Assembly (NCBI GenBank): GCA_900550285.1
Contig: URRW01000003.1
Location: forward strand, 41,478-105,477
Reading direction: 5' to 3'
Length of the DNA stretch: 64,000 bases
Source: an uncultured Lachnospiraceae bacterium
GTDB taxonomy: Bacteria > Bacillota > Clostridia > Lachnospirales > Lachnospiraceae
In this document: one piece after another, positions 12,705 through 64,000 of the stretch
Layout of the letters: the number at the start of each line of letters is the position of its first letter
Numbering within the stretch: the stretch's first letter is position 1
Program-made: the position numbers and the translations under genes
Notes under the pieces: generated by a model
Database searches by the model: none
Told to the model about the DNA's origin: nothing
The model's input: the letters and a program-made list of their open reading frames with translations, nothing else

Positions 12705-12768
12705 AGGGCAGGACGGCAGACCCTGTGGGGGCAGGGACTGGCGGATGCCGGAACAGCAGGCAGGAATT

Positions 12769-13437: not shown

Positions 13438-13639
13438 TCCCGTCTTTTTTTGGTACAGAAGCGTGAAGATTTCTGTGTCAAAATTGTGAACTTTGGGAAA
13501 GTGCATAAATTTTTTACGGTTTGCTATAGCTTTTTTTGTGGTTTTCTTTTAAAATATAGAAAGGGTTATAGCGAAATTGCAGGGCGGCGCAGCGGCTGTG
13601 CCGCAGAATGCGTTAATTCAATATGGAGGAGACGGGGTT

Positions 13640-14728
13640 ATGATCTCAAATCAGATTTTACAGAGTACGCTTGAGGGATTCAAAGCGATCGCCAGAGTGG
13701 AATTATGTGTGGCGGACATGGACGGGAATGTGGCGGCGTCCACATCGGACAGCTTGGACGGCTGCCTGCCGGCAGTCAGGGCGTTTATCGATTCGCCCGC
13801 GGACAGTCAGGAAGTGCAGGGCAATCAGTTTTTTAAGATCTATGACGATCAGCAGCTGGAATACATCCTTGTGGTCGGGGGAGCCGGGGAGAATTTCTAC
13901 ATGATCGGGAAGATGGCGGCATTTCAGGTGCAGAACCTGCTTGTGGCGTACAAGGAACGCTTTGACAAGGACAATTTTATTAAGAACCTGCTTTTGGACA
14001 ACCTGTTGTTAGTCGATATTTACAGCAGGGCGAAGAAGCTGCATATCCCGGCGGACGCAGACCGCGTGGTGTTTATCATCGAGAGCGGCGGCGGGAAGGA
14101 CAACAATATTCTGGAGCAGATGCGTCCGGTCTTTGGAAATAACAACCACGACTTTATTACGGCGGTGGATGAAAACAACGTGATCGTGGTAAAGGAACTT
14201 GCTGAGGGCGATCAGGCAAAGGAGATCGGCGATTACGCTACAGGTATTTTGGAATGGCTTGAAAATGAGGGCGTATCGGACAACCGCGTATCCTACGGCA
14301 CGATCGTGCGGGAGATCAAGGAGGTCAGCCGTTCCTACAAGGAAGCGAAGATGGCGCTGGACGTGGGAAAAATTTTCTTTGACGAACGCACCGTTATCGC
14401 GTATAGTGAACTGGGAATCGGCCGTCTGATCTATCAGCTTCCGATCCCGCTGTGCAAAATGTTTATCCGCGAGATCTTCGGCGGCAAGAGCCCGGACGAT
14501 TTCGATGAGGAAACATTGACGACCATCAGCAAATTTTTTGAAAACAGCCTGAACGTTTCGGAGACGAGCAGACAGCTTTTCATCCACCGCAATACGCTCG
14601 TATACCGGCTGGATAAGCTGCAGAAGTCCACGGGGCTGGATCTGCGCGTATTCGAGGACGCGATCACTTTCAAGATCGCGCTGATGGTTGTGAAGTACAT
14701 GAAGTATATGGAAACTTTTGAATACTAG
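13640..14728 (+). CDS. PucR/CdaR-family transcriptional regulator
   Basis: C-terminal PucR-type HTH (SETSRQLFIHRNTLVYRLDKLQKSTGLDL). RBS ggaggag before ATG 13640. Confidence 0.6.
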   Translation: MISNQILQSTLEGFKAIARVELCVADMDGNVAASTSDSLDGCLPAVRAFIDSPADSQEVQGNQFFKIYDDQQLEYILVVGGAGENFYMIGKMAAFQVQNLLVAYKERFDKDNFIKNLLLDNLLLVDIYSRAKKLHIPADADRVVFIIESGGGKDNNILEQMRPVFGNNNHDFITAVDENNVIVVKELAEGDQAKEIGDYATGILEWLENEGVSDNRVSYGTIVREIKEVSRSYKEAKMALDVGKIFFDERTVIAYSELGIGRLIYQLPIPLCKMFIREIFGGKSPDDFDEETLTTISKFFENSLNVSETSRQLFIHRNTLVYRLDKLQKSTGLDLRVFEDAITFKIALMVVKYMKYMETFEY

Positions 14729-15483: not shown

Positions 15484-16372
15484 TACATTTTTTTATACGT
15501 TGAAGCAGGGAATTATCAATATTTTCCGCAATAAGCTGTTTTCGCTGGCGTCGGTTGCCACGATCTCGGCGTGCCTGTTTCTTTTCGGCCTGTTTTTTAC
15601 GGTAATTTTAAACTTCCAGCACATGATCCGGACGGCGGAAGAGGGCGTTTCCGTGACGGTCTTTTTCAAGGAGGGCGTGACGGAGGAGGAGATGGTTGCG
15701 GTAGGCGACCAGATCCGGGCAAGACAGGAGGTTTCGGAAGCGGTTTTTGTGACGGCGGACGAGGCGTGGGCTGAATGGGCGCCCGAAAACATCGGCGAGG
15801 ATTACGAAGAGATCTATTCCGAAAACCCGCTGGAAGGCCTTGACAACTATGAGATTTATATGAAGGATGTGGCGCAGCAGGAGACGCTTGTGACATGGCT
15901 GGAATCGCTGCCGCAGGTAGACAGCGTAAAGCGCTCCGAGATGGCGGCGACGACGCTGACCGGCGTGAACATGGTCGTGGCGTATACGTCTGCGGCAATC
16001 ATTGCGATCCTTTTGGCGGTATCCATTTTCCTGATCAACAATACGGTCATGATCGGTATTTCTGTCCGCAAGGAGGAGATCGAGATCATGAAATATATCG
16101 GCGCGACGGACTTTTTCGTTCGTTCCCCGTTCGTGATCGAAGGCATTCTGATCGGCCTGATCGGTTCCTGCATCCCGCTGGGCGTGATCTATCTTCTGTA
16201 TATGCAGGTGATGGAATATGTGGCGCTGCAGTTCCCGGCGCTGTCCGGGCTGATGCAGTTCCTTCCGGTTTCCGAAGTGTACCGCACGCTCGTTCCCGTA
16301 TGTATGGGGCTTGGCGCGGGCATTGGATTTTTGGGAAGCTTTGCGACGGTGCGTAAGCATCTGCGCGTCTGA
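15473..16372 (+). CDS. ftsX: Cell-division permease FtsX
   Basis: 4-TM FtsX topology with a large extracellular loop; overlaps the ftsE stop. Confidence 0.9.
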   Translation: MRISTFFYTLKQGIINIFRNKLFSLASVATISACLFLFGLFFTVILNFQHMIRTAEEGVSVTVFFKEGVTEEEMVAVGDQIRARQEVSEAVFVTADEAWAEWAPENIGEDYEEIYSENPLEGLDNYEIYMKDVAQQETLVTWLESLPQVDSVKRSEMAATTLTGVNMVVAYTSAAIIAILLAVSIFLINNTVMIGISVRKEEIEIMKYIGATDFFVRSPFVIEGILIGLIGSCIPLGVIYLLYMQVMEYVALQFPALSGLMQFLPVSEVYRTLVPVCMGLGAGIGFLGSFATVRKHLRV

Positions 16373-16386
16373 TGAGAGGGAACAGA

Positions 16387-17601
16387 ATGCGGAAAAGGAT
16401 AAGGCAGGGCCTTGCAGGCTGTCTGATCGCTGCGCTGCTTTTGGCGGCAGTCCCGGCGGGCAGCGTGCAGGCGGGCACGCTTGAGGACAGCATCAAGGAG
16501 AAACAGGAAGCGATCAGTCAGGCGGAGCAGGAAAAGAAAAAGCTCCAGTCCAGCATTTCCAATATCAAAGCGATGGTAAAGGATCTGGAAAAATCCAAAA
16601 GCGATCTGGAAACCTATGTAAAGGAGCTGGACGGCAAGCTGGCGGACATCGGGGCAAAGATTGACGAGCTGCAAAAGCAGATCGCCCAGAAAAAAGAAGA
16701 AATCGCGCAGGCGAAGGCTGACCTTGAAAAGGCGCAGGAGGTCGCGGACCAGCAGTATACGGATATGAAAAAGCGGCTCCGCTTTTTGTATCAGAACAGT
16801 AAGGGCAGCGGCTATCTGGAGCTTCTGGTAAGCGCGGAAAGCTTTGCGGATATGCTCAATCAGGCAGAATATGTGGAACAGCTGAGCGCTTACGACAGCC
16901 AGAAGCTGGAGGAATACCGTCAGAGCGTGGAATATATGAAGCTTTGCAAGCAGACGCTGGAAGAGGAAGAAGAGGTGCTTGCGTCCGCGCAGGCAAGCCT
17001 GGAACAGGAGCAGAAGGCGGTCGATACGCTGATCGGGGAAAAAGAGCAGCAGATACAGGCTTTTCAGGGAGACATCAACAATAAGGAAGCGGCGCTGAAG
17101 GAATACGAGGCGGATGTGGCGGAGCAGAACGCCACGATCGCGGCGCTGGAAAAGGCGGTTGCCGCCGATAAGGCGAAGCTTGCGGAACAGAACCGGATCA
17201 AATACGACGGCGGCATGTTCCAGATGCCCTGTCCCGGCTACAAACGCGTTTCCAGCGATTACGGAACGCGGATGCATCCGACGCTGGGCGTCCAGAAATT
17301 CCATAACGGCGTGGACTTTGCGGCGGCGAGCGGAACGCCGATCCTTGCGGCGTACAGCGGCAACGTGGTGGCGGCTTCCTACAACAGCTCGATGGGAAAT
17401 TATGTGATGATCGACCACGGCGACGGGCTTTATACGATCTACATGCACGCGTCGAAGCTTTACGTTTCGTCGGGGCAGTCGGTCAGCAAGGGCGACCAGA
17501 TCGCGGCAGTGGGCTCTACGGGACGTTCGACCGGGCCGCACCTTCACTTCTCGGTGCGCCTAAACGGCAACTACGTAAGCCCCTGGGGATACTTAAAGTA
17601 A
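16387..17601 (+). CDS. Peptidase M23 (EnvC/PcsB-like) with N-terminal coiled coil
   Basis: Signal peptide, long coiled coil and C-terminal M23 LytM domain (HNGVDFAA...HLHFSV). Gene order ftsE-ftsX-M23. Confidence 0.85.
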   Translation: MRKRIRQGLAGCLIAALLLAAVPAGSVQAGTLEDSIKEKQEAISQAEQEKKKLQSSISNIKAMVKDLEKSKSDLETYVKELDGKLADIGAKIDELQKQIAQKKEEIAQAKADLEKAQEVADQQYTDMKKRLRFLYQNSKGSGYLELLVSAESFADMLNQAEYVEQLSAYDSQKLEEYRQSVEYMKLCKQTLEEEEEVLASAQASLEQEQKAVDTLIGEKEQQIQAFQGDINNKEAALKEYEADVAEQNATIAALEKAVAADKAKLAEQNRIKYDGGMFQMPCPGYKRVSSDYGTRMHPTLGVQKFHNGVDFAAASGTPILAAYSGNVVAASYNSSMGNYVMIDHGDGLYTIYMHASKLYVSSGQSVSKGDQIAAVGSTGRSTGPHLHFSVRLNGNYVSPWGYLK

Positions 17602-17626
17602 ACCCGCCGCCGTGTGGGCGGGTTTA
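17600..17626 (+). terminator. Rho-independent terminator after the M23 peptidase gene
   Basis: AACCCGCC-gccgtgtg-GGCGGGTT followed by a T-containing tail. Confidence 0.7.
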
Positions 17627-18010
17627 CTGCTACTTCTCGATTTCTGAAAGGAAATTGAGAAGGTTCCCGAAAGGGATCCGCCGCCGTATGGGCGGTAAAA
17701 ATGAATAACAGGTGCGACAGACCGGAACGGGGGATTGGGGCTTCTAAATCCTTCGTTCCGGTTATATATATGATGATACCAAGGAACCAAGGTCAATGAT
17801 CCGACGCAAGCTTGCTTGCAGGAGGATTTTTGACTTTGGTTCCCGCCAAAACATGAGTAAGAAGCCATTTTCTGAAAGAAAATGAGCGGATTACGAATGT
17901 TTTTGAGGATTGCGGAAGCGCGGAGCGCGGAGCAATCCGGTATCAGGGATTATTTGTAAATGAAAAATCCAAAGAAGTGAAGGGTCATATAGATAACAGG
18001 TGGTAAAAAA

Positions 18011-19240: not shown

Positions 19241-19341
19241 ATTTTCATTGACGCGGTTTTGGGCAGGGATTACAATAGGATCAGACACATAAGGAAAACC
19301 GGGTCCCGGTTGGCACAGCTTTGAGAAAAGAGGGTGAGCAT

Positions 19342-19668
19342 ATGAGAGGACCGATGATGATTTTTGCAGCAGCAGTTTTTCTTTTGTTGATCGTGGCTTA
19401 TCTGGCGCACTGTAAGCGGTCAGGAGAGCGGATCGGGGGCAAATTGCATGATATGCTTTTGCTTGGTCTGATGCGTCTGGATATTGCGGTGACGCAGGGG
19501 CTTCACTATGTGCAGCTTGCGATTGCGTCTGTCTGCAAGGGCTACCATCCGGCAGGGATGGAAAGCTCGATCGCCCATAAGAGGGAGCGGATGGAGAACC
19601 ATCGCAGAGCCATGGGCGAAGTAGAGTATGTGCGCCGCAGGCGCTACAACCGCAAGATTCTGGAGTAG
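19342..19668 (+). CDS. Hypothetical small membrane protein
   Basis: RBS agagggtgag before ATG 19342; one TM helix; no recognisable family. Confidence 0.3.
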   Translation: MRGPMMIFAAAVFLLLIVAYLAHCKRSGERIGGKLHDMLLLGLMRLDIAVTQGLHYVQLAIASVCKGYHPAGMESSIAHKRERMENHRRAMGEVEYVRRRRYNRKILE

Positions 19669-19691
19669 AGCGGACTTAAGGAAGCCGCCGG

Positions 19692-19720
19692 CAGCGCCGG
19701 CGGCTTTCGTCCGGAAACTG
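19692..19720 (+). terminator. Terminator-like GC hairpin after the small hypothetical gene
   Basis: AAGCCGCCGGC-agc-GCCGGCGGCTT followed by TCGT; weak U tract. Confidence 0.55.
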
Positions 19721-19805
19721 CCGGAGGGCAGGGCAGCCGTGCGGCCAAACTGTTGCCGTTTGAAAATATTTTATGAAAAAAATTTTGAAAAATTGAAAAT
19801 AGTGC

Positions 19806-19834
19806 TTGCATTTTATGAAAACCTGTGCTAAGAT
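19806..19834 (+). promoter_or_regulatory. Putative sigmaA promoter for tRNA-Gly
   Basis: TTGCAT-17 nt-TAAGAT located ~35 nt upstream of the tRNA 5' end. Confidence 0.5.
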
Positions 19835-19870
19835 AAATTTCGTCGCTGAGACATACGGCGACAAGCGAAT

Positions 19871-19943
19871 GCGACAGTAGTACAGTTGGTAGTACGCCAC
19901 CTTGCCAAGGTGGAGGTCGCGGGTTCGAGCCCCGTCTGTCGCT
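19871..19943 (+). tRNA. tRNA-Gly (anticodon GCC)
   Basis: Cloverleaf recognisable: acceptor GCGACAG/CTGTCGC, anticodon stem-loop CCACC-TTGCCAA-GGTGG, T-arm GGTTCGAGCCC. No encoded CCA. Confidence 0.85.
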
Positions 19944-20158
19944 CTTCTTAAGGAAGAACTTTGAATGATCAAGGTTCTTTTTTTTTACCCAGTTACGGGA
20001 AGCCTGACCGTGGGTTATCCGCGGTCGGGGAGCAGGAAGATAATAGAGGATTACGGCACGGCTGCCGGTGCAGGAGCGTCGCAGGCAGCCATGACGGCGG
20101 GAAAGCGCATCTGAGGTTTTTCACCGTCCTGCGTTTACGCTCCGGAATGGAGATTGAA

Positions 20159-21496
20159 ATGGAAAGGCCACATAACAGCATCGGACAGGAGTTTACGGTC
20201 CTTTCGCTGCTGAAATTTGTAGCGCCGACGGTGGTCATGCTGGTGTTCATGTCCCTTTATCAGATGGTAGACGGCGTTTTTGTATCAAAATTTGTAGGGG
20301 AAAACGCGCTGTCGGCTTTAAATATCGTGTATCCGATCCCGAGCATCATTATCGCGGTTTCCATCATGCTGGCGACCGGGGGAAGCGCGGTCATCGCCCG
20401 GAATATGGGAGAAGGGAAAAACCGGGAAGCGAAGGAAAATTTTTCCTTCCTCGTGCTGACAGGCGCGGCCGTGGGCGCGGTCATCGTGGCGGCGGGCGTC
20501 CTTTTTATCGAGCCGCTGATCTATCTGCTCGGTTCGACGCCGGCTTTATACGATTACTGCTATGATTATCTGTTGATCCTGATTCTTTCGGCTCCGCTGG
20601 CGGTTTTCCAGATGCTGTTCCAGAGCTTTTTTGTGACGGCGGGCAAGCCGCATCTGGGGCTTACGCTGACGGTTCTGGGAGGGATCGCCAATATCGTTCT
20701 GGATTATGTGTTTATCGTAGTCTGCGGCTTCGGGGTAAGCGGCGCCGCGCTGGCGACGTCGATCGGATATTCGATCCCCGGGCTGTTCGGGCTGGTTTAT
20801 TTTACGGTAAACCGGAGGGGGACGCTGTACTTTGTAAAGCCGGTGCTGCGCTGGCGGCTTCTGCTCCGCTGCTGTGCAAACGGTTCCTCCGAGATGGTCA
20901 ATAATCTGGCGGTGGCGGTCACGACGTTTTTGTTTAATGTGCTCATGCTGAAGTATGCGGGCGAAGCGGGTGTGGCGGCGATCACGATCGTGCTGTACGC
21001 GCAGTTTCTTATGACGTCCGCATTTATGGGATTTTCCAGCGGCGTCGCCCCGGTTGTGAGCTTTAATTACGGAAGCAGGAATGTGAGGCAGCTGAAAAAA
21101 ATATTTAAGATCAGCGTCTGCGTGGTAGCGATCGTTTCGGCGCTCGTTTTCGGGATCGCGGAGCTGGGTTCGGACATCGTGATCTTGGTGTTTACGCCGG
21201 CGGGAAGCGAGGTATTTGCGCTTGCCAAGCATGGCTTCGCCATTTTTTCCGTCAGCTTTTTGTTTACGGGGATGAATATTTTTGCGTCGGCGCTGTTTAC
21301 GGCGTTTTCCAACGGCAAGGTTTCCGCCATCCTGTCTTTTTTGAGGACGTTTGTATTTCTGGCAGTGTGCCTGCTCATCCTTCCGCTGTTCTGGGGAGTG
21401 GACGGGATCTGGACGGCGGTGCCGATCGCGGAGGCGATGGCGTTTTTCGTATCGGTCTATTATCTGGCAAGATTTAAAAAAGTATATGAATATTGA
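20159..21496 (+). CDS. MATE family efflux transporter
   Basis: 12-TM MATE-like sequence. Start set at the ATG with ggag upstream (20147 is also possible); the long upstream ORF is unsupported. Confidence 0.85.
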   Translation: MERPHNSIGQEFTVLSLLKFVAPTVVMLVFMSLYQMVDGVFVSKFVGENALSALNIVYPIPSIIIAVSIMLATGGSAVIARNMGEGKNREAKENFSFLVLTGAAVGAVIVAAGVLFIEPLIYLLGSTPALYDYCYDYLLILILSAPLAVFQMLFQSFFVTAGKPHLGLTLTVLGGIANIVLDYVFIVVCGFGVSGAALATSIGYSIPGLFGLVYFTVNRRGTLYFVKPVLRWRLLLRCCANGSSEMVNNLAVAVTTFLFNVLMLKYAGEAGVAAITIVLYAQFLMTSAFMGFSSGVAPVVSFNYGSRNVRQLKKIFKISVCVVAIVSALVFGIAELGSDIVILVFTPAGSEVFALAKHGFAIFSVSFLFTGMNIFASALFTAFSNGKVSAILSFLRTFVFLAVCLLILPLFWGVDGIWTAVPIAEAMAFFVSVYYLARFKKVYEY

Positions 21497-53808: not shown

Positions 53809-54115
53809 AGAGCCAGCCTCCTTTGTAAAAGCGTTTGCCGCAGCGTATACGGATATGATTTTACAAAAATTTTACGCCACTGCATCGGGCAAGTCAAGGG
53901 GATTTCCGGGATCCGCTGGCGGAGGGGGGAGCGGATGCCCTTGCGCCGCCGGAGGGCGTGTGTTACAGTGTAAGAAGCGGTACGGTGTGCAGGAAGGCGC
54001 ATACTTTTTTATACGCACTCGCGCGAAATGTAGGAATTGCCTGACGGCAAACGCGCTCGGCGCGGGTGTGTGCCAAGGCGCACACTTATTTATTGAAAAA
54101 CGGAGGGAAATCAGG

Positions 54116-54733
54116 ATGGAATATCAGGTAAAAACGATCGCATCCAAAGACGGGATCGAGAGCTGCGAGCGGTTTGAGATCAGCAATTTTATGTGGACGT
54201 GTCTGCAGCAGCCGAAGGCATGGGGCTGGATGGGCTACCTTGCGGGGGAGGGCTTTTATGTAAAGCTCGTATGTGAAGAAAAGGATCCGAAGCGCACGTT
54301 TACCAACTATATGGATATGGTGTGCAAGGACAGCGCGATGGAAGTATTTCTGGCGTTCCCGGAAGAGGGAGAGGCGCTGACAAACGACGTGATGTATCTG
54401 AATTTTGAGGCAAATTCCAATGGGGCGCTGTATGCAGCCTACGGCAAGGGCAGAAAGGGACGCAGCCGGATGCCGGAAAAATATCTGGAAGCATGTAATT
54501 GTCAGGCAAAGATCGAGGACGACCGCTGGACGCTGACCTATACGATCCCGGAGGAATATCTGAAAAACGAGGCGGGCGTGAAGGCTCTGGATCAGGATAC
54601 GGAGTTTTACTGCAATTTTTATAAGATTGCGGAAAGCCCGGAGATCGAGCATTACGCTTCCTATTCCCCGATTGATAACGAGAAGCCGAACTTCCATTTG
54701 CCGGTATTTTTTGCGCGCGCCCATATCGTCTGA
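54116..54733 (+). CDS. Hypothetical protein, possibly carbohydrate-binding family 9-like/DOMON-like
   Basis: ATG 54116 with RBS ggaggg; beta-rich sequence; family assignment tentative. Confidence 0.35.
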   Translation: MEYQVKTIASKDGIESCERFEISNFMWTCLQQPKAWGWMGYLAGEGFYVKLVCEEKDPKRTFTNYMDMVCKDSAMEVFLAFPEEGEALTNDVMYLNFEANSNGALYAAYGKGRKGRSRMPEKYLEACNCQAKIEDDRWTLTYTIPEEYLKNEAGVKALDQDTEFYCNFYKIAESPEIEHYASYSPIDNEKPNFHLPVFFARAHIV

Positions 54734-54812
54734 CGCCGGAAGCCGGGCGGGGGATGAAAGCGCCGGGCGCAGGGGAAGAGAGAAGCATTAAGACAGAATG
54801 GAGCGCAGCACT

Positions 54813-56225
54813 ATGAAAAATATGACATTATGGAATATTGCGCGTGCCTGCAAGGGAAAGCTTGTCGTTCCGGCGGGAAACAGCGCGGGGAGCTGCCCGA
54901 AGGCGGGCATGGCGGTCATCCGCGGATTTACGGGCAAGGAAGCCGGACGGATCGTGCTGGATTCGCGCAAGGTGGAGCCGGGAGACGTGTTTATCGCAAC
55001 GAGGGGCGAGCGCGTGGACGGACATGATTTTATCCATGAGGTTTTTGAAAAAGGGGCGATCGGCGTCGTCTGTGAAAAAGACCCGGAACCGCTGACCGGG
55101 CCGTGCATCCGGGTAGAGGACAGCTTTGCCGCGCTTCGGCAGATCGCCGCTTTTTACCGGGAGCAGATGCCTGTCCCGATCGTGGGGATCACAGGAAGCG
55201 TGGGAAAGACGAGCACGAAGGAATTTGTGGCGGCGGTGCTTTCGCAGAAATATAAAACGCATAAGACGCAGGGCAATTTTAACAATGAGGTCGGCGTGCC
55301 GCTCACCCTTTTAGCGATGCCGGAGGATACGGAGGCGGCGGTCGTGGAAATGGGGATCAACCATTTCGGGGAAATGCACCGCCTGAGTGAGATCGTGCGC
55401 CCGGATGTCTGCGTGATGACGAATATCGGTCAGTGCCATCTGGAATTTTTGGGCAGCAGGGATGGGATTTTGCAGGCAAAGTCTGAGATATTTGACTGTA
55501 TGAACCCGGAAGGCAGCGTATGCGTCAACGGAGACGACGACAAGCTTGTTACGATTCGGGAAGTAAACGGCAGAAAGCCGCTGCGCTTCGGGCTTTCGCC
55601 GGAAAACGATATTTATGCGGATCACATTGTAAGCCGCGGGCTGCTTGGCAGCACGGCGCAGATCCATGCGGACGGGGAGGTTTTTGAGGCGGACATCCCG
55701 CTGCCGGGTTCCCACATGGTATTGAATGCGCTGGCGGCAACGGCGGTTGGGAAGCTTCTTGGGCTGACGGCAGACCAGATCGCGGCAGGCATTCGGTCTG
55801 TGCAGGCGGTAAGCGGGAGAAGCCGTGTCGTTTCGGCAGGCGGCAAGGTGCTGATTGACGACTGCTACAATGCAAACCCGGTGTCCGCAAAGGCGGCGAT
55901 CGACCTGCTGGGGCTTGCGGACGGCAGGAAGGTTGCGGTGCTGGGCGATATGTTTGAGCTTGGCGAAAAGGAAAAAGAGCTTCACGCGCAGGTCGGCGCA
56001 TATGCTGCAGAACACGGCGTGGACTGCCTGTACTGCGCGGGCGCGCTTTCGGAGGAAATGTACCGCGCCGCGAAGGAGGCGGGCATCGCTGAGGCTGCGC
56101 ATTTTGCGGATACGGACGCGCTGCTTCAAGCTTTGCCGGGACTTTTGCGGTCGGGCGATTCCGTGCTTATCAAAGCGTCCCATGGGATGGGCTATCACCG
56201 GATCGTGGAGGCGCTGGAGCAGTAA
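54813..56225 (+). CDS. murF: UDP-N-acetylmuramoyl-tripeptide--D-alanyl-D-alanine ligase
   Basis: Mur ligase ATP-binding motif GITGSVGKTSTKE; Mur ligase middle and C-terminal domains. Confidence 0.9.
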   Translation: MKNMTLWNIARACKGKLVVPAGNSAGSCPKAGMAVIRGFTGKEAGRIVLDSRKVEPGDVFIATRGERVDGHDFIHEVFEKGAIGVVCEKDPEPLTGPCIRVEDSFAALRQIAAFYREQMPVPIVGITGSVGKTSTKEFVAAVLSQKYKTHKTQGNFNNEVGVPLTLLAMPEDTEAAVVEMGINHFGEMHRLSEIVRPDVCVMTNIGQCHLEFLGSRDGILQAKSEIFDCMNPEGSVCVNGDDDKLVTIREVNGRKPLRFGLSPENDIYADHIVSRGLLGSTAQIHADGEVFEADIPLPGSHMVLNALAATAVGKLLGLTADQIAAGIRSVQAVSGRSRVVSAGGKVLIDDCYNANPVSAKAAIDLLGLADGRKVAVLGDMFELGEKEKELHAQVGAYAAEHGVDCLYCAGALSEEMYRAAKEAGIAEAAHFADTDALLQALPGLLRSGDSVLIKASHGMGYHRIVEALEQ

Positions 56226-56480
56226 GATTAAGCTGACAGATACAAAATGTGTATACGAGGTCGGAGAGATGAAATATAAAAAGATTGTCGATAGTTTAAA
56301 GCTGTCGGCAATTTTTTTGTAGATATTTGGTAAAATTTAGAAAAAAAGAGGTGAAAATTGACACACATCAATTACTTCTAATGAGAATTATATTACTATA
56401 TATTTATAAAATTTTTATAAATAGGCAGAAAATATATTGCGATGATGAGAATAAAGTTTTGATGTCTGGAGGAAACTGAA

Positions 56481-58298
56481 ATGGCAAAATTTATAATGAA
56501 ATGTCCGATATGTACCTCAGAAGGAAAGGATGTGTATGTATGGGTAAATAGTGGCGTATTTGGGACAGGTTTATTTGGTAATCGTGAAGGTAAATGTCCT
56601 AACGGTCATACATTTAATATCAATGCTAATAAAATTGCGATGAAAGTATGCCCACATTGCGGTAATAACGTTGCTTATGACCAATCTAAGGGAGAGGCTG
56701 CCGTATGCCCAGTGTGTAAATCTGAATTAAATACATTGAAGGATAATTTAGCTACCGTTCAAATAAAATGTCCTCAATGTGGTTGTACTCATAGCGTGGC
56801 AAAAGATGCGAAAACAATAGAATGTGCCGTTTGCGGTGCTTTAGTCGATATTCAGCGAGAACTGGGAAAAATCCAGATGGCTGAAGAAAATACTGTAAGC
56901 TGTATAAAATATGAGGGAAATAACGAGACATTTGTTTGGAAGCATCCTATAGAAGATTTTAAATTTGGCTCACAGCTTATAGTTCATGATTCGCAGGAAG
57001 CACTATTTTTTGCAGGTGGACAGGCTCTTGATTTATTCGGAGGCGGAACATATACGCTGACAACAGAAAATATTCCGCTACTGAGCGCTGTGTATAGGGT
57101 TCCATCAGGGGAGGAAACCTTTCATAGTGAAGTATATTTTATTAATAAAACAGTACATACCGGAATTAAATGGGGAACCAGTTCCCGAATTAGTATGTTT
57201 GATCCTTATTCTGGTATGCATGTTGCAATTGGAGCATCGGGACAATTCAATATGGCAGTTTCAAACTCGAAAAAATTAATACTGAAACTTGTCGGAACAA
57301 CGGATGTTTTTGATCATTCACATAGCGTAGAGCAAATGTCTGAAAGCCGACAGGGGGATCCGTCAAATAATATTTTGTCATATATACGATCAGTGGTTAT
57401 AACCAAGGTAAAAACACATTTGGCAAATGTGATTAAAGAGCATCGGTGGAGTATCCTTGAACTTGATGCATACCTTGAAGAATTAGCGAACGGAATTAAA
57501 GAAAAAATCAATTTGGATCTGGATGAATATGGTTTGTTTATGCCTGACTTTTTCATTTTGAATATTTCGACGCCGGAGGATAGTACAGACCCGGTTGAGC
57601 GTGAAAATTACTTGAGAATGAAAAATCAGTTTGGAGAAAGATATATCCAGATACGGGAAGAAGAGAATAAAGAAGCGGTGGCTTTGGCAGCCCAAAAACG
57701 AAAACTGATAGAGGCGGAAACAGAAGCACGGCTCAATATCATTCAATCACAGGGAGAGGCAGAAAGTTTTCGTCTGCATGGTTTAGCCGAAGCTGATGTC
57801 CAACGTGCACAAGGGTTTACTGGAAAAGATAAAATGCAGTACGACGTTCAAAAAGCATTTGCAGAGAATATAGGAGGGATAAGCGGAGATGGAGGAGGCG
57901 CATTGGGTGATTTGATCGGTCTGGGAGCGGGATTGGGTTTGATGTCAAAAATAGGAAGTAGTGTAAGTTCAATGATGGATATGCCTGAAAATCATTCAGA
58001 ATTTTTGAATAAAGGAGCCGTTGTAAGTACATCTGACTCGTGGGATTGTTCCTGTGGAGCAAGGGGACAGACGGGAAATTTCTGCGCGGAATGTGGGAAA
58101 CCAAAACCGCATTCTGTCAATGAGTGGAAATGTGATTGCGGAGCTGTGAATAGAGGCGGAAATTTTTGCAGCGAGTGTGGAAAGCAACGTCCTGTTACAG
58201 AAACATGGACATGTTCCTGTGGAGCCAGTGGATTAAGCGGAAAATTTTGCAACGTATGTGGGAAAAAAAGAGATTCGGAGGCGATAGATGTTGAATAA
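56481..58298 (+). CDS. Multi-zinc-ribbon / SPFH (Band_7_1-like) / triple zinc-ribbon protein (island gene A)
   Basis: 605 aa, low GC. N-terminal CxxC zinc ribbons (CPICTS, CPHCGN, CPVCKS, CPQCGC, CAVCGA); central SPFH-like region (FVWKHPIEDFKFGSQLIVHDSQEALFFAGGQALDLFGGGTYTLTTEN...EVYFINK) with a coiled-coil tail; C-terminal three repeats of WxCxCG-(7)-FCxxCGK. RBS ggagg. Confidence 0.7.
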   Translation: MAKFIMKCPICTSEGKDVYVWVNSGVFGTGLFGNREGKCPNGHTFNINANKIAMKVCPHCGNNVAYDQSKGEAAVCPVCKSELNTLKDNLATVQIKCPQCGCTHSVAKDAKTIECAVCGALVDIQRELGKIQMAEENTVSCIKYEGNNETFVWKHPIEDFKFGSQLIVHDSQEALFFAGGQALDLFGGGTYTLTTENIPLLSAVYRVPSGEETFHSEVYFINKTVHTGIKWGTSSRISMFDPYSGMHVAIGASGQFNMAVSNSKKLILKLVGTTDVFDHSHSVEQMSESRQGDPSNNILSYIRSVVITKVKTHLANVIKEHRWSILELDAYLEELANGIKEKINLDLDEYGLFMPDFFILNISTPEDSTDPVERENYLRMKNQFGERYIQIREEENKEAVALAAQKRKLIEAETEARLNIIQSQGEAESFRLHGLAEADVQRAQGFTGKDKMQYDVQKAFAENIGGISGDGGGALGDLIGLGAGLGLMSKIGSSVSSMMDMPENHSEFLNKGAVVSTSDSWDCSCGARGQTGNFCAECGKPKPHSVNEWKCDCGAVNRGGNFCSECGKQRPVTETWTCSCGASGLSGKFCNVCGKKRDSEAIDVE

Positions 58299-58983
58299 AG
58301 TGAAACTAACCACGTTAGGATTTGTTATTGTGCTTATTCTATATAATTTTTTGGTTTTAATGATTGGCGGCATAAGTGATCATACGGTAACATTTTGGTT
58401 TTCTTATGCAATAGAAAATATTTCATTCATTATCGTAGGAGCATTGTTGGGCGTTTGTTTTTATAGAGGCGTATCGGAAAAATTATTTTTTCTGGGTTAT
58501 CCGATAGCATTCTGGTCTTGTATTTACTTACCGGCTCAGCTTGTTGTGTCAATTATTTTTATGTATATTGACCGCTATGCCAAAGCTGCCATAACAATTC
58601 AGGTGCTGTTGCTTGTATTGTATGTATTTATTGTGATTATGTGTATGCAGGCGAAGAATGCAATTGAAAATGTGTATGAAACGCGCAGTGCAAATATACA
58701 TAATATGCGCCATATGATAACAGTAATGGACAGTATAGTTCCATCTGTTTCAGATGTACAGCTAAGGAAGAAACTTTATAAATTAGCAGAGGATTTTCGA
58801 TATAGCGATATTGTATCTTCGGAAGCTACAGAAGCTCTTGAAAAGCAGATGATGGAAAAGATAGATTTGTTAAAGGTAAAGAGTAAAAATGCCCCGGATG
58901 ACGCAAGTATTCTTGCTGTAGAGATTTCAGAACAGCTGGCAGAAAGAAATTTTATTTGCAAAGAAAGTAAAAAAAGATATTAA
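58288..58983 (+). CDS. Small polytopic membrane protein (4 predicted TM) with cytoplasmic helical tail (island gene B)
   Basis: Overlaps the stop of gene A by 11 nt (coupled); hydrophobic segments aa ~8-30, 37-58, 66-95, 100-122; low GC. Confidence 0.6.
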   Translation: MLNKVKLTTLGFVIVLILYNFLVLMIGGISDHTVTFWFSYAIENISFIIVGALLGVCFYRGVSEKLFFLGYPIAFWSCIYLPAQLVVSIIFMYIDRYAKAAITIQVLLLVLYVFIVIMCMQAKNAIENVYETRSANIHNMRHMITVMDSIVPSVSDVQLRKKLYKLAEDFRYSDIVSSEATEALEKQMMEKIDLLKVKSKNAPDDASILAVEISEQLAERNFICKESKKRY

Positions 58984-59035
58984 AAGAGGTCTGAAAATAT
59001 GCTGATTCAAATAAACGAAAGAAAGGATAAATATT

Positions 59036-61174
59036 ATGAATATAAGATGTAAAATGTGCGGAGCAGCGGTTCAGGTAAATACGAAAGAGCACGTCGTAGT
59101 TTGCGAATATTGCGGTTCCTCAATTACTTTGCCGTCCCTTGAGGATGAAACGAAAACGCTTTTGTATAATCGTGCAAATCAAAGCCGTTTGCGCAGTGAG
59201 TTTGATAATGCTTATAAACTTTTTGAAGATTTATTGAAAACAAATCCGGAAGATCCGGAAATATATTGGTCGCTGCTTTTATGCCGTTATGGAATTGAAT
59301 ATGTGAAAGATCCTAAAACGGATAAATTTATTCCGACTTGTCATAGAACGTTGATGCGTCCTATTTATGAGGACGAGGATTATCAGGATGCAATAAAATA
59401 TGCATCTCCTGAAATGAGAAAAATTTATGAACAAGAAGCGGTAGAAATTGATCATATTCAGCAGGCTACTTTGCGTGCGGCAAAAGATATACCGCCATTT
59501 GACATTTTTATCTGCTATAAGGAAACAGATGAATTTGACAACAGGACAGTTGACAGTGTTCTGGCACAGAATTTATATGATAAATTGACGGGGGAAGGGT
59601 ATCATGTTTTTTATTCCAGAGAAACGTTGAAAGAAATTCCAGGTGAAGCTTATGAACCATATATATATGCAGCATTACGAAGCTCTAGGATAATGATTAT
59701 TGTCGGTACATGTCCAGAATTTTTATATGCTCGTTGGGTAAAGAATGAGTGGAGCCGTTTTATCAGTTTTATGGAAAAAGGGGAAAAGAAGTATCCGATT
59801 GTCGCTTATAAGGGGATGAATCCTCGTGAAATTCCAATTGAACTGGCTCATAGTGAAGCTTTGGACATGAATGCCATAGGATTTGTAGAAGATTTGCTTC
59901 GAGGGGTTCGGAGAATATTTGAAGGAAAGGTAACAAATTCTAATACGTTGTCAACAGGCGGTTTCTTAGAGGCAGGATTTTTGGCGGTGGCAACAAAAGA
60001 ATATGAAAAGGCGGCTGAGTTGTTTCAACAGGCTATTACAATTGATTCCTCTAATCCGTGTGCATATTTAGGTATGATTGGGGCAGTAGATGAAGAAAAG
60101 AAAGAACTGTACTACCAAAAGCTTTGTGAAGTTTCTTCAAAAAGAAATCGCGAGAGCGAACAACAATATTTAAAACTTTTAAAAGATAATATTGAAAGAG
60201 TACTATATTGCTTTATAGATCATAATGACATTTTGAGAATTAAGGAGTGCATTGCTACAGGGGCAGATTTAAGTATGGGGCTTTGCTATGCTGTCCAGAA
60301 AGAAAAAAAGGAGGTGGTAATCTGCTTATGTGGGGCGGAAGGAATTAATTTGGATGTATTGGTTAATGATCAGACAGCGTGTCCTGCTAGTATTGCATGT
60401 AGTGTCAAAAATAGTGAAATATTAGAATATCTATTGGAGAGGGGCGCATCTACAGATACGATTATTGAAAATACAGAACATTCAGATTATGATACACTTC
60501 TATCATATTGTATCCAAATTTATTATCCAGAGGGTATTAAAATATTACTTGATCATGGGGCAGAGGCAATAGAAAGATTTGGGAATAGGCAGTGCACAGT
60601 GCTTTCATTAGCAATAAGGAATTCATATAGGGATATTTGTGAAATGTTATTAGAGCATGGCGCAGATATTAATGCGATTTCTGATGTGATTCCGACATTT
60701 GTTTGGGCAATATTTGGAGATGTAGAGATGATAAGTTTTATTATTGAACAACATGCTAATTTAGATTTAAAATGGGAAGTAAATAATAAAAATTATAATA
60801 TTGTTTCGTATGCTTATAATTGTGAGGCATATAGGGCATTGGAATATTTAGCAAATAGTAAATATAGATATTTAATAAAAGAACACTTAGATGATTTACA
60901 TTTTGCAAAAAGTATGTTATATTTTCCAAGCAGATTTATTGGAGGAATTATTGTTGTTATATTTGTCGCAATTAGTATTGGAGTAGGAATTGCGGGAAGG
61001 AATGGAATGGAAGCATCTCAGTGGGTAGAAGAGTTTCTGGGAACAATATTGAGCGGTTTCTTGGGGGGACTTTTAGTGTATGTTGCGATAGCAGATTTTT
61101 TAAGAAAAGATGATAATGAAGATATATTATTAGTGAAGGAAGAGATACAATATTTTAAGAATATATTAAAGTGA
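59036..61174 (+). CDS. Zinc-ribbon / TIR-domain / ankyrin-repeat protein with two C-terminal TM helices (island gene C)
   Basis: 712 aa. N-terminal C4 zinc ribbon (CKMCG...CEYCGS). TIR fold aa ~153-285 (DIFICYKETDE...GYHVFYSRETL...IMIIVGTCPEFLYARWVKNEWSRFIS) with a candidate catalytic Glu at ~238. Ankyrin repeats aa ~395-610 (LLERGAST..., LLDHGAEA..., MLLEHGADINA). TM aa ~633-654 and 667-687. Confidence 0.75.
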   Translation: MNIRCKMCGAAVQVNTKEHVVVCEYCGSSITLPSLEDETKTLLYNRANQSRLRSEFDNAYKLFEDLLKTNPEDPEIYWSLLLCRYGIEYVKDPKTDKFIPTCHRTLMRPIYEDEDYQDAIKYASPEMRKIYEQEAVEIDHIQQATLRAAKDIPPFDIFICYKETDEFDNRTVDSVLAQNLYDKLTGEGYHVFYSRETLKEIPGEAYEPYIYAALRSSRIMIIVGTCPEFLYARWVKNEWSRFISFMEKGEKKYPIVAYKGMNPREIPIELAHSEALDMNAIGFVEDLLRGVRRIFEGKVTNSNTLSTGGFLEAGFLAVATKEYEKAAELFQQAITIDSSNPCAYLGMIGAVDEEKKELYYQKLCEVSSKRNRESEQQYLKLLKDNIERVLYCFIDHNDILRIKECIATGADLSMGLCYAVQKEKKEVVICLCGAEGINLDVLVNDQTACPASIACSVKNSEILEYLLERGASTDTIIENTEHSDYDTLLSYCIQIYYPEGIKILLDHGAEAIERFGNRQCTVLSLAIRNSYRDICEMLLEHGADINAISDVIPTFVWAIFGDVEMISFIIEQHANLDLKWEVNNKNYNIVSYAYNCEAYRALEYLANSKYRYLIKEHLDDLHFAKSMLYFPSRFIGGIIVVIFVAISIGVGIAGRNGMEASQWVEEFLGTILSGFLGGLLVYVAIADFLRKDDNEDILLVKEEIQYFKNILK

Positions 61175-61206
61175 AAATTTAAAAATTAGTAGTATTAAAT
61201 ATTTAT

Positions 61207-62797
61207 CCTAGATTATTCACGGAACAGTATCTGAATTGATAACAGTACCATGAATCTGAAAATTGATCCATGCAGCCATAACATCACTCAATTAACCCGT
61301 CAAAAGGGTATAAAATCCCTGTGGCAGAGTTCAGAGCAGTTGTTAAGCTGTCAATGTTCGTTAATAGTTGCTATTCCAGCTGTACATTCAGCTTGCCGAT
61401 ATTTGAAAGTGTCTCATAGAATTCATTCTTATAGGGGCAACTGCTGCACAGTTTGAATGTGATATATCTTGCTGAATGAACTACTTTTGCAGCAATCTTC
61501 AGCAATTTTAAACGGACGGTATCAATGCGTTGCTTTCTCATATTTGCTGATAGCACCAATCTTCTAAACCAATTAAATATGTTATACGCAAGAGCATGTA
61601 CCTGCAGTCTATTGGCATTTACCATTCTGGTATGACTGCTTACGGACGCAAAATCAAAACCGGATTTGCTTTCTTTAATGAAGTTTTCCATCAGCCCTCG
61701 CTTGCAGTAAAATTTGATGAGATACTCTGGTGAGGAATCCATGTTTGTGACAACAAATGTGTACATGTAAACCATTTGGTTTTCCGGCTTTTCAACCTTG
61801 CATACCACACGCCTTTCATAAGGCCATGAACTCGCTCTATACATGAATTCGCCATAGGCTACTGCATAATCGACTTTATTATTTTTGGTGATCTCATCAA
61901 GCTCATCCACAAGATAGGATGCTTTTTTGCGGAGAATGCCATTCTCCTTCAGCCGGATCACATAGCTTGTGCCGTTTTCCTCACACTGCTTATAAAGATC
62001 AGGTGTAGCGAAACCACTGTCACCACGAAGCAGAATACGGATCGCCGGATAATCATTCAGGTATTCATCAAGTATCGGCTGCAGGAAGTCAACCACTCCG
62101 GTAGAGGAATACTCGGTTCCATCACGAAGCTGGATTTTTACCAGATCTCCGGTCATTCCATCATAACAGACAAGTGGATGGTATCCATTGCTTTGATAAT
62201 GAAAGTTAAAGGCTCTGCCTTCCTGTTTGCCGTATGCATCAAGAAGAGTGGAATCCAGATCCAGAATAACAGCCTGTGGCATCTGAATACGATAAACTCT
62301 CTTTCGGAGTATTCTGCCAATCATAAGTAACTGGTTTAAGGTATCTTCATCCATACGGTTAAAGAATCTTGATACCGTAGGCTGTGATGCAAGGGTGTCT
62401 TTTTCAAGTACAGACTTGAATACAGGATCATTTGTAAGTTCATCGGAAGTATCATCTTCAAAGTAGCCTGCAATGATCATATATATCATCTGGAGCAGGT
62501 TTTTCTGATCTGTATGATATCTGAATAATGCAGAATCGTTGGTCTTGAAAACTTTGCCTAAAAGATTATCAATACCAAGTTTTCTTACGAATTCTTTGAT
62601 GAGAAGCAATCCTGCATCGGAGGATAAATGGAATAAGTTTTTTGGAAAATAGATATAAGTGACTACAATGGATTGGAAGTGATACTGGATAGTTGAAAAA
62701 ATGTTGTATCATTTGGCTGGATAAGCTATAATAAGCATGAAAAAATAAGAAAAGGGCTGATGGTACGTCAATATCAACAGCTCCAGAGTGAACAAGG
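61207..62797 (-). mobile_element. Putative IS1380-family insertion sequence (ends tentative)
   Basis: Candidate terminus CCTAGATTATTCACGG at 61207, resembling the ISEcp1 IR start CCTAGATT (as recalled). An imperfect inverted match (CCTTGTTCACTCTGG on the opposite strand) ends near 62797. Size ~1.6 kb fits the family. No clean direct repeats seen. Confidence 0.4.
61371..62609 (-). CDS. IS1380-family DDE transposase (ISEcp1-like)
   Basis: Clear similarity to ISEcp1-type Tnp as recalled (DSGF..., YCKRGLMENFIKESK, ARYITFKLCSSCPYK). First canonical start is TTG 62609, yet similarity continues ~15 codons further upstream with no ATG/GTG. Start degenerate or N-terminus truncated. Confidence 0.8.
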   Translation of the reverse strand: MLLIKEFVRKLGIDNLLGKVFKTNDSALFRYHTDQKNLLQMIYMIIAGYFEDDTSDELTNDPVFKSVLEKDTLASQPTVSRFFNRMDEDTLNQLLMIGRILRKRVYRIQMPQAVILDLDSTLLDAYGKQEGRAFNFHYQSNGYHPLVCYDGMTGDLVKIQLRDGTEYSSTGVVDFLQPILDEYLNDYPAIRILLRGDSGFATPDLYKQCEENGTSYVIRLKENGILRKKASYLVDELDEITKNNKVDYAVAYGEFMYRASSWPYERRVVCKVEKPENQMVYMYTFVVTNMDSSPEYLIKFYCKRGLMENFIKESKSGFDFASVSSHTRMVNANRLQVHALAYNIFNWFRRLVLSANMRKQRIDTVRLKLLKIAAKVVHSARYITFKLCSSCPYKNEFYETLSNIGKLNVQLE

Positions 62798-62874
62798 TTT
62801 TTTGAAAGGGGGTAGAAATAAACAAGGATATAATCAATGAATGTTTGAAAGACCCATAAGAAAGGAGTCAGTTT

Positions 62875-63360
62875 ATGAAGAAAACTTTTGCTATTTCTCT
62901 GCTCATTATTGTGTTATTCACTTTGGTGGCGTGTGGTTCAAAAACGGCACAAGATACTGTATCAAAGGAACTTGGACTGTCTGTGTCTGGTGGTAAAGAA
63001 GTTTCAAATATTAATACATACAGTGGTAGTGAGGGTCATTCCTGTATTGCAATAAGTTTTGAAGATGAAACTGTTTTGGAAGAAATCAAGGGTAATTCCA
63101 AGTGGAAGGAGTTTCCTCTTGATGAAACAATGCAAGCACTTGTCTATGGTTTGGAAGATGAAACAGGTGAGATTGGAGCATTTTTGAGCGATGGACAGGG
63201 AAATCTCTTAGTACCAGAAATTCAGAACGGCTATTATATCTTAATTGACCGTCATTCAGATACAAAAACAAATATTTTGGAGCGAGGTTCGTTTAATTTT
63301 ACTGTGGGATTGTATGATACAGATAGCAGCACGTTGTATTGCTGTAAGCTTGATACTTAA
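62875..63360 (+). CDS. Lipoprotein (hypothetical)
   Basis: Signal peptide with lipobox LVAC-G (MKKTFAISLLIIVLFTLVACGSK); low GC; RBS aaggag. Confidence 0.6.
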   Translation: MKKTFAISLLIIVLFTLVACGSKTAQDTVSKELGLSVSGGKEVSNINTYSGSEGHSCIAISFEDETVLEEIKGNSKWKEFPLDETMQALVYGLEDETGEIGAFLSDGQGNLLVPEIQNGYYILIDRHSDTKTNILERGSFNFTVGLYDTDSSTLYCCKLDT

Positions 63361-63405
63361 ATAACAGCAACGGCTGGCCTATATGGCCAGCCGTTGCTGT
63401 TATTT
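63358..63405. terminator. Bidirectional terminator between convergent lipoprotein gene and hypothetical gene
   Basis: 22-bp stem TAAATAACAGCAACGGCTGGCC-tatat-GGCCAGCCGTTGCTGTTATTT, T-rich on both sides. Confidence 0.8.
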
Positions 63406-63414
63406 TGTGATATA

Positions 63415-63882
63415 TTAAGAGGTAAAGTCGATATTGATCGTGATTTTGTGAAGCACGCCAGTTTGCTGGGAAAGCCATGCCCAGTTGTTTACCGCAGAGG
63501 TAAAAAGACTGTCGTAATTGTTATCCAGTGCAAAATCAAAAACGTCATAGACATGGACTTTGTAGTTTGTACCGGACTTGTTGAGTGTTACAGTGGCGTT
63601 GTGGAGAGCATAAAACAAGTCTGAGTTATCAGATTTGGTGAATTCTCTAACAGCACTGTCATGGGATTTGTTACTGTTTTTAGTTGCAGATAAGAAGTCT
63701 TTGAAAGTGGAAGTGGTTTTGATCTTTTCTGCAAAGGAGCCGTTATCCTCCTTGTAGTTGATGCCGAGAACGGAGTGTTCAACTGCTTTTGCAGCACAAG
63801 GATAACCGGCAAGTTTGGCAGCCTGAGCCGCTGCGAGCCATGCAGCTTTTAGTGTAGCTGTAGAGGAACCCGGCAGGATCAT
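63415..63882 (-). CDS. Hypothetical protein
   Basis: 155-aa ORF, low GC, converging on the lipoprotein gene across a shared 22-bp-stem terminator. Its ATG overlaps the stop of a 12-codon upstream ORF (ATGA). Confidence 0.4.
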   Translation of the reverse strand: MILPGSSTATLKAAWLAAAQAAKLAGYPCAAKAVEHSVLGINYKEDNGSFAEKIKTTSTFKDFLSATKNSNKSHDSAVREFTKSDNSDLFYALHNATVTLNKSGTNYKVHVYDVFDFALDNNYDSLFTSAVNNWAWLSQQTGVLHKITINIDFTS

Positions 63883-64000
63883 TCTGGAGTCGGTATCATC
63901 AGCAGAAGCAGAAACATTGTTCCTCCATCAAAATTTATTTTAATTTGTCTATTGCTTTCTAGTGATAAGGTGTTTACAATACTCATAAAGGGCTCCTTTG

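Follow-up and report, generated by a model that had tools for sequence, protein, structure and literature searches.

A 64,000-nucleotide (nt) stretch of DNA from an uncultured Lachnospiraceae bacterium (contig URRW01000003.1 of assembly GCA_900550285.1, forward-strand positions 41,478 to 105,477; the whole stretch is called the window) carries a 4.7 kb operon of three genes, here termed A, B and C, in which an SPFH protein and a small membrane protein are encoded together with a large TIR protein. Coordinates are window positions, and related loci collected from other genomes bear labels of the type L001. The operon is preceded by murF (54798-56225), and its three genes are co-directional on the + strand: A (56481..58298; 605 amino acids, aa) is called from its open reading frame (ORF), Pfam and homologues, B (58288..58983; 231 aa) from its ORF, and C (59036..61174; 712 aa) from its ORF and Pfam. 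As stated in an initial annotation of this DNA, A and B overlap by 11 nt, the ATG of B at 58288 lying inside A and the TAA of A occupying 58296-58298, and a GGAGG Shine-Dalgarno sequence stands ahead of both genes. Judging by sequence comparison, the system is most likely a TIR-based conflict system built around a new, SPFH-based core.

An SPFH protein with zinc ribbons and its membrane partner

Residues 158-375 of A (56952..57605, + strand) form an SPFH domain, recognised by Pfam PF13421 (Band_7_1; E 8.1e-38, 130.6 bits against a cut-off of 24), by homology to Bacillus subtilis YdjI and by a Foldseek comparison of an AlphaFold2 (AF2) model with the PDB, in which the top 38 matches are all SPFH proteins (prohibitin, HflK/C, stomatin, flotillin and QmcA). 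The AF2 model as a whole is poor, with a mean predicted local distance difference test score (pLDDT) of 63.8 and with the most conserved stretch (about residues 137-225) poorly modelled, and it was used solely for recognition of the SPFH fold. A profile built from 30 homologues also matches the structures of Erlin-1, QmcA and HflC in the PDB. A long alpha-helix at residues 371-443 (57591..57809, + strand), assigned by DSSP on the AF2 model with pLDDT of 81-87 in 10-residue blocks, falls in the profile regions that match the Erlin-1, QmcA and HflC chains, and as modelled it fits the coiled-coil tail, or wall helix, of SPFH assemblies; the SPFH core with coiled-coil tail initially proposed is thus borne out. 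It is followed by a Gly-rich low-complexity linker (residues 464-518; 57870..58034, + strand; pLDDT <50) bearing a conserved GxxGDxxGLGxxLG motif. Hydrophobic or transmembrane (TM) segments were not found in A, which is predicted to be a soluble cytoplasmic protein, and conservation across the family is highest at residues 140-225.

Both ends of A are occupied by zinc ribbons, six in all. Residues 1-123 (56481..56849, + strand) hold five CxxC knuckles, at residues 8, 57, 76, 97 and 115, plus a C39/H43 knuckle; the cysteines of the five CxxC knuckles and C39 are invariant among 30 homologues, and the C39/H43 position is CxCG in most of them. By ligand pairing these knuckles make three four-ligand ribbons (C8/C11 with C39/H43, C57/C60 with C76/C79, and C97/C100 with C115/C118), and so the five N-terminal units first described are real as knuckles and reduce to three as ribbons. 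At residues 521-595 (58041..58265, + strand) a regular-expression search for W-x-C-x-C-G-x7-F-C-x-x-C-G-K finds three further ribbons, at 58041-58100, 58125-58184 and 58206-58265. They had been placed at about 58038-58265 and called near-identical: their number and place hold, but counted from the sequence their 20-residue cores are only about 60% identical to each other, and a DNA-level tandem repeat beneath the three was looked for and not found. The copy number of the C-terminal ribbon is 2-5 in nearly all of 78 relatives of A, with one locus at 0 and one at 1. More than 2400 homologues of A are found at E<=1e-5, and the 120 best listed are about 600 aa long, nearly all covering 98-100% of A. 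Among plasmids, A matched only YdjI-like proteins devoid of the N-terminal ribbons. One of these is a 393-aa SPFH protein on the 20-kb Butyrivibrio fibrisolvens plasmid pNP21 (L092, 6700-7881), 35% identical to A residues 124-597 and neighboured by two hypothetical genes and a Txe/RelB toxin-antitoxin pair, which shows that the YdjI-like core also moves alone on mobile DNA.

The closest characterised relatives of A come from the PspA-associated ydj cluster of B. subtilis, the pspA-ydjG-ydjH-ydjI DNA of which was recovered for comparison from a metagenome via a primer published in PMC8581546. There YdjI is soluble, holds a low-complexity region, needs YdjG/YdjH for membrane targeting and recruits its client PspA (Scholz et al. 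2021, PMC8581546), and YdjG combines a pair of zinc ribbons with an NTF2-like domain and a TM segment (Ravi et al. 2024, PMC11237479). A and YdjI align by BLASTP with E 2e-18 and 26% identity over A residues 124-391, the SPFH region, and share a common layout: a Band_7_1 SPFH domain, no TM segment, a low-complexity stretch and one or more C-terminal ribbons, in each case with a membrane protein encoded alongside. Ribbons 2 and 3 of A align to both YdjG ribbons (hhalign probability 92%, E 5.6e-7, 69 columns), and counterparts of the NTF2-like domain and TM segment of YdjG were found neither in A nor in B. The proposal that A is a fused YdjG/YdjI therefore holds for YdjI and for the ribbon part only of YdjG. 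The further proposal that B stands for YdjH does not survive: YdjH matches TPM_phosphatase with E 7.7e-22, while B lacks a TPM domain and its profile meets YdjH with an hhalign probability of 0.2%. Nor does the suggested tie to a PspA-associated cluster, a phmmer search with B. subtilis PspA finding no homologue in the ORFs of 88 loci with flanks of 10 kb on either side. Without pspA and without a TPM partner the system is not a Psp operon, and A is best described as a paralogue of YdjI that gained ribbons of the YdjG type, with B as another kind of membrane partner. In one Acutalibacteraceae metagenome-assembled genome (MAG; L054) a YdjG-like gene (E 5e-63; 532-1626) and a YdjH-like TPM gene (1641-2402) stand 3 kb upstream of a TIR-TIR-A locus and are not followed by a YdjI-like gene. 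This proximity may be coincidence or a functional link between the systems; since the genome holds both gene sets, TIR-A and YdjGH-type systems coexist and are paralogous.

B is a four-TM protein, as had been thought, by its sequence as well as by its AF2 model (pLDDT 84), in which four TM helices (about residues 4-125) precede a cytoplasmic helical bundle (about 126-230). As modelled, the fourth TM helix runs on into the cytoplasm and is followed by a three-helix bundle. Invariant residues R171, D174 and R220, together with an RYSDP-like motif, map to this cytoplasmic bundle. Searches of B against Pfam, NCBIfam and PADLOC gave no match, and so B, having no Pfam match, is not the NfeD-family partner typical of SPFH-NfeD pairs. 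B homologues were collected by profile search; a full HMMER scan with the profile yields 3201 clusters at 50% identity (E<=1e-3), and nearly all of the 150 best listed relatives are stand-alone proteins of 200-240 aa.

Linkage to TIR genes and the variable receptor ends

The association of A and B with a TIR gene, noted at first for this window, is conserved well beyond it. One genome per species was scanned with A to give 80 loci of 38-64% identity, nearly all labelled as Clostridia or as other Bacillota, with three under different MAG labels, and mostly from gut or rumen MAGs. In 69 of 78 loci the gene directly after A encodes a B homologue, most often at -31 to +35 nt from the A stop codon, a few being displaced by insertions. 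When TIR ORFs were sought by jackhmmer seeded with C residues 146-300, a same-strand TIR gene was found within 3 kb of A in 39 of the 40 loci with flanks of 3 kb or more on either side, the sole exception having a TIR-less paralogue placed between A and B. All 112 TIR matches lie on the strand of A and directly flank A-B, with 1-5 TIR genes per locus. The order TIR_2, Band_7_1 and a gene of about 230 aa recurs in precomputed Pfam calls around metagenomic A homologues, and the same A-B-TIR layout surrounds a distant B homologue. With hundreds to thousands of homologues each of A, B and the TIR module in the same arrangement, the linkage is far beyond chance. The SPFH fold is thus present in A, and homologues of A and B do occur with effector-like third genes, the two points on which the initial annotation had staked its reading.

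Pfam matches in C are to TIR_2 (residues 157-279), Ank and TPR. Its layout runs from a zinc ribbon (residues 5-26) through TPR, TIR (148-299, with W234 and E238) and a second TPR to ankyrin repeats (about 420-600) and a TM hairpin (626-689). Much of this is constant in the family, for 104 of 109 TIR proteins start with a zinc ribbon (C5, C8, C23, C26) followed by TPR with a conserved helical region and by TIR at about 148-298. Among 101 such N-terminal modules the catalytic glutamate E238 is kept in 99% and W234 in 100%. The WxxxE motif so formed aligns with the 'WPARE' of the Brucella TcpB TIR domain, and its spacing is that of the plant catalytic motif 'WCLxE'. Bacterial TIR domains with a catalytic glutamate are NAD+-consuming immune enzymes, and an NADase activity of the TIR module would be expected from this.

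What follows the TIR domain is variable. Between paralogues the N-terminal module is 37-49% identical as against 10-23% for the C-terminus, and the proteins range from 400 to 1900 aa. RCC1 repeats are the C-terminal domain in 26 of 97 proteins, DUF6273 in 23 of 97 and ankyrin repeats in three, C of the window included; others carry TPR, BspA-type leucine-rich repeats (LRR_5), Listeria-Bacteroides repeats (Flg_new) or MORN. TM segments follow the TIR domain in 60 of 109 proteins, with about 45% having none. Thirty-four proteins have one TM segment followed by over 150 further residues; Lys and Arg together average 5.6 in the 15 residues ahead of this segment against 1.7 in those after, the bias running that way in 33 of the 34, and so the TIR domain lies inside the cell and the variable domain outside. 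C itself is of a cytoplasmic-sensor type, with ankyrin repeats held by a C-terminal TM hairpin. TM-anchored proteins made of repeated 'GDYxDS/A' units are encoded near some loci (L004:7377-7856, L004:11774-13654 and L010:2797-4536), and the same repeat fills the region from the TM segment to DUF6273 in long TIR receptors, for example at L094 13052-14513.

In two loci the receptor end is the target of a diversity-generating retroelement (DGR). On a mobile element, directly downstream of the gene for a 1826-aa TIR-DUF6273 protein in an A-B-HEPN-TIR locus (L094), the variable repeat (VR) occupies 15589-15697 (109 nt, at the 3' end of the TIR gene), the template repeat (TR) 16372-16480, the bAvd gene 15925-16323 and the reverse transcriptase (RT) gene 16750-17799; of 12 mismatches between VR and TR 11 fall at TR adenines, which is the DGR signature. 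In the second (L061) the domain under DGR attack is the C-terminal DUF6273 of a TIR protein encoded beside an A homologue, with the VR at 14361-14478 (the 3' end of the TIR gene 11925-14510), the TR at 17517-17634, Avd at 17115-17348 and RT at 19297-20361; here 16 of 29 mismatches are at TR adenines, and so this VR/TR pair is more diverged or not strictly cognate. An extra 129-nt repeat is present at the same locus (14529-14657 and 20699-20827, 88% identical). DUF6273 is a known DGR target domain in Faecalibacterium phages (PMC11792537). The window itself gave no phmmer match of its ORFs to the L094 RT or Avd, C ending in ankyrin repeats and TM helices. Given the constant zinc ribbon-TPR-TIR module, the hypervariable C-terminus, the 1-5 paralogues per locus and the occasional DGR, the family TIR genes look more like diversifying sensors than the plain TIR effector of the initial annotation.

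The N-terminal ribbon of the TIR proteins, of the form CxxC-x14-CxxC, is not confined to them. It is found also on TIR-less RCC1 paralogues in about 10 loci and on a trypsin-like protease, and its presence on three kinds of operon protein is the best hint from sequence of a physical docking.

Genomic setting and variable operon genes

The window copy is a low-GC insertion (0.35-0.40 against 0.55) on the 3' side of murF, G+C being 0.35-0.40 across 56000-64000, up to the window end, and 0.48-0.58 in the rest of the window. A sister contig (L089) has the same murF-A-B-C block and is 98-99.5% identical to the window over 54041-61206, the identity stopping 32 nt past the C stop codon (from window position 61207). 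Beyond that point the sister contig has LytTR and ABC-transporter genes and no insertion sequence (IS), and in the window C is followed by an IS1380-type transposase gene on the - strand (61371-62609; Pfam DDE_Tnp_1_4, E 8e-150), and so the right border is variable. The same low-GC stretch of the window holds a gene for a predicted lipoprotein with a signal peptide ending in LVAC (62875-63360, + strand) and one for a 155-aa protein (63415-63882, - strand), neither with a Pfam family. A scan for promoters and terminators was uninformative, the counts being at the level of shuffled sequence. Copies of the system on mobile elements (L093-L095) lie among resolvases, a relaxase and IS elements.

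Several further genes enter the operon in relatives. A ribbon-helix-helix (RHH) regulator of the CopG-like type, about 65 aa long, heads the operon in 22 loci (for example L011:9775-9984, L038:9744-9989 and L017:3540-3752) and is absent from the window copy. Small variable cassettes of SIR2_2, DUF2971, CAP12/Pycsar-type TIR and HEPN kinds are inserted in some operons between A/B and the TIR genes (L022:9127-9996, L048:8986-10005, L039:12469-13128, L067:2939-3634, L086:13199-13849 and L094:9643-10251). Further insert families are seen at L017:9547-9996 and L088:4066-4677, which are HEPN-like by eye, and at L024:2777-3547 with L044:9243-9977. The TIR-less paralogues are composed of a zinc ribbon, GTVxVxG repeats, TPR and RCC1; in four loci they stand between A and B and so break the usual coupling (L028:11870-13549, L058:11861-13537, L082:11433-13049 and L085:11986-13914), and others are at L018:4675-6354, L022:12628-14217 and L066:4717-6375. 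The protease, a trypsin-like peptidase domain between two zinc ribbons, is encoded at L072:4150-5022.

A candidate platform for TIR receptors and its rivals

The interpretation that seems best placed, held tentatively and at slightly below an even chance, is that A and B make up the constant pair of genes at the core of a membrane-associated TIR conflict system of immune type, common in gut and rumen Clostridia. The closest solved relatives of A (prohibitin, HflK/C, stomatin, flotillin, QmcA and Erlin) without exception build rings or cages at the membrane, solved SPFH assemblies having 24-26 subunits, and A, as a soluble SPFH protein of the YdjI type, would probably assemble into a large ring or cage beneath the membrane in the same way. 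B, made in step with A through translational coupling, would anchor this assembly to the membrane via its cytoplasmic bundle, as YdjG/YdjH do for YdjI. The neighbouring genes, C in the window, would then be receptors, each with a constant cytoplasmic zinc ribbon-TPR-TIR part and a hypervariable ligand-binding end, which the A-B platform would recruit or corral, possibly via the zinc-ribbon arrays on both partners; this anchoring and recruitment is proposed by analogy with YdjI-YdjG/YdjH-PspA and with SPFH rings. Recognition of a ligand by the variable domain, be it the cytoplasmic ankyrin repeats on their membrane anchor as in the window or the extracellular RCC1, DUF6273, LRR or similar domains of many relatives, would lead to TIR assembly and so to NAD+ cleavage; the attacked cell would then stop growing or die, or accessory effectors would receive a signal. 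The cassettes, the low-GC insertion with its variable border and the copies on mobile elements are signs that suggest a conflict system. Set beside PspA-YdjGHI, the difference apart from B, the missing YdjG parts and the missing pspA would lie in the client, PspA there and, by analogy, the TIR receptor family here. Set beside HflK/C-FtsH, QmcA-YbbJ/NfeD, stomatin, flotillin and prohibitin, the SPFH fold with its long wall helix and the pairing of an SPFH gene with that of a small membrane protein are shared, but A lacks an anchor in the membrane and bears six zinc ribbons, and its partner B is not NfeD.

The main competitor, unlikely yet to be taken seriously, is a Thoeris-like arrangement in which the TIR proteins sense the invader and make a diffusible NAD-derived nucleotide, and A-B, as the effector, binds this signal and then disturbs the membrane or makes it permeable. 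A strictly conserved module lacking TIR, joined by one to five TIR genes per locus, is the layout of Thoeris (ThsB TIR plus effector; types I-XI), the catalytic glutamate is common to both, many predicted Thoeris effectors are TM proteins or have domains of unknown type (Yirmiya et al. 2025 preprint), residues 140-225 of A could be the ligand site, and the TIR domain of C weakly resembles ThsB-type models. That resemblance falls far under the curated cut-offs, however, with PADLOC ThsB1 matching C only, at E 1.7e-4, NCBIfam ThcB4 reaching 22.9 bits where 220 are required, and A and B matching none. The partner in the present system is an SPFH scaffold with a four-TM protein, and SLOG, Macro, SAVED, CARF and STING, the known signal-binding domains, were not detected in A or B with Pfam, PADLOC and NCBIfam. 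SPFH proteins are known as scaffolds and not as killers, ThsB is small where the receptors here are large, many of them transmembrane, with zinc ribbon, TPR and repeat or DGR-diversified ends, and the N-terminal ribbon shared by TIR, TIR-less and protease genes argues for docking over a diffusible messenger.

It is quite improbable that the genes form a non-immune envelope-signalling or stress module, with A-B acting in YdjGHI-like membrane organisation or repair, the TIR proteins serving as outside-in receptors at the surface for cues from host, diet or neighbouring cells, and the output being neither death nor defence. The homology of A to envelope-stress YdjI and to the YdjG ribbons would fit such a role, as would the mainly housekeeping neighbours, the RHH regulator at the operon head and extracellular RCC1, LRR_5, Flg_new and DUF6273 domains typical of gut Firmicutes surface proteins. 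Against it stand the lack of pspA in any locus and of a TPM partner, the HEPN, SIR2_2, DUF2971 and CAP12-type TIR cassettes inside operons, the immune character generally known for bacterial TIR domains with the catalytic glutamate, and DGR hypermutation, the expansion of paralogues, islands of low GC and a distribution both patchy and mobile, all hallmarks of conflict systems. Very unlikely indeed is a guard role, in which an SPFH cage sequesters toxic TIR NADases, as HflK/C encloses FtsH, until membrane damage by phage entry, holins or toxins frees them, because although SPFH cages do enclose membrane clients, the HflK/C-FtsH and QmcA structures are among the best matches of A, TM segments occur in 60 of the 109 TIR proteins and the membrane-stress sensing first suggested for the locus fits YdjI biology (PMC8581546), it leaves the elaborate, diversifying ligand-binding domains unexplained and about 45% of the TIR proteins have no TM segment.

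Several observations weigh against the two-gene receptor platform favoured here. Self-sufficient TIR sensor-effectors would leave the strictly conserved A-B pair unexplained, and a ligand site could lie concealed in the conserved yet poorly modelled residues 140-225 of A, in which case the effector model would gain. The resemblance between the ribbons of A and those of the TIR proteins is only generic (hhalign 29%) and gives no evidence of specific pairing, and the number of C-terminal ribbons in A correlates weakly with that of TIR genes (rho 0.35, p 0.066, n 29). Co-occurrence rests on the closest relatives of A, those of 38-64% identity, and is thus shown for this clade only. By Pfam content 128 sampled neighbour genes are mostly housekeeping, with 2 integrases and 1 methylase, and so no enrichment for defence or mobile functions marks a defence island among these random neighbours. 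Carriage by phages is rare, a phage collection giving short ribbon matches only and IMG/VR seven loci, one of them of the full type.

Two known designs come close to the receptors themselves. NTP-dependent conflict systems with DGR-diversified CLec sensors and TIR or peptidase effectors have been described (Kaur et al. 2020, PMC7159879; Dore et al. 2024, PMC10907252), and in L094 and L061 a DGR likewise mutates the C-terminal lectin-type DUF6273 of a TIR protein; here, in contrast, SPFH plus a four-TM protein takes the place of a STAND NTPase or MoxR-vWA core, the hosts are gut Clostridia, which are unicellular, and the window copy has ankyrin repeats and no DGR. In 34 of 109 TIR proteins the family resembles animal Toll-like receptors in that one TM segment joins a repeat domain outside the cytoplasm to a TIR domain within it, and its TIR profile matches the TIR structures of Toll-like receptors, but the TIR domain is N-terminal here, so that the polarity is reversed, it is probably enzymatic, the resemblance is convergent and not orthologous, and the ankyrin sensor of C is cytoplasmic. 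A bolder form of the receptor platform, rather unlikely as it stands, would be a Toll-like surface surveillance in gut Clostridia, in which extracellular and sometimes DGR-hypermutated receptors with one TM segment and a cytoplasmic TIR domain sit on a flotillin-like SPFH microdomain made by A-B, sense phages or competitors at the cell surface while their DNA is still outside, and trigger an NAD+-based immunity. Were this true, it would be a bacterial counterpart of raft-organised Toll-like receptor signalling with an adaptive-like receptor repertoire.

No model for the system exists in PADLOC 2.0, in NCBIfam 20 for A and B, or in Pfam for B. In a systematic TIR survey of 2025 the terms SPFH, 'Band' and 'zinc' are absent from text and supplements, and open-access papers and preprints on SPFH/Band-7 proteins with TIR, Thoeris or phage defence do not describe it, although a description elsewhere is possible. 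Searches based on defence islands would probably miss the cluster, its neighbours being mostly housekeeping genes. TIR immunity and SPFH/flotillin scaffolds are both conserved from bacteria to humans, and we found no report of the two acting jointly in bacteria. With some 3200 B-family clusters at 50% identity, mainly from gut and rumen Clostridia, the system belongs to a large unannotated family, of which the A-B-C operon of the window, with three genes, is an experimentally tractable member. If functional, it would give YdjI-type SPFH proteins a second client besides PspA, would offer a model for how a membrane platform controls TIR assembly, and would bring to light bacterial transmembrane TIR receptors with diversifying extracellular sensors, some of them driven by DGRs.

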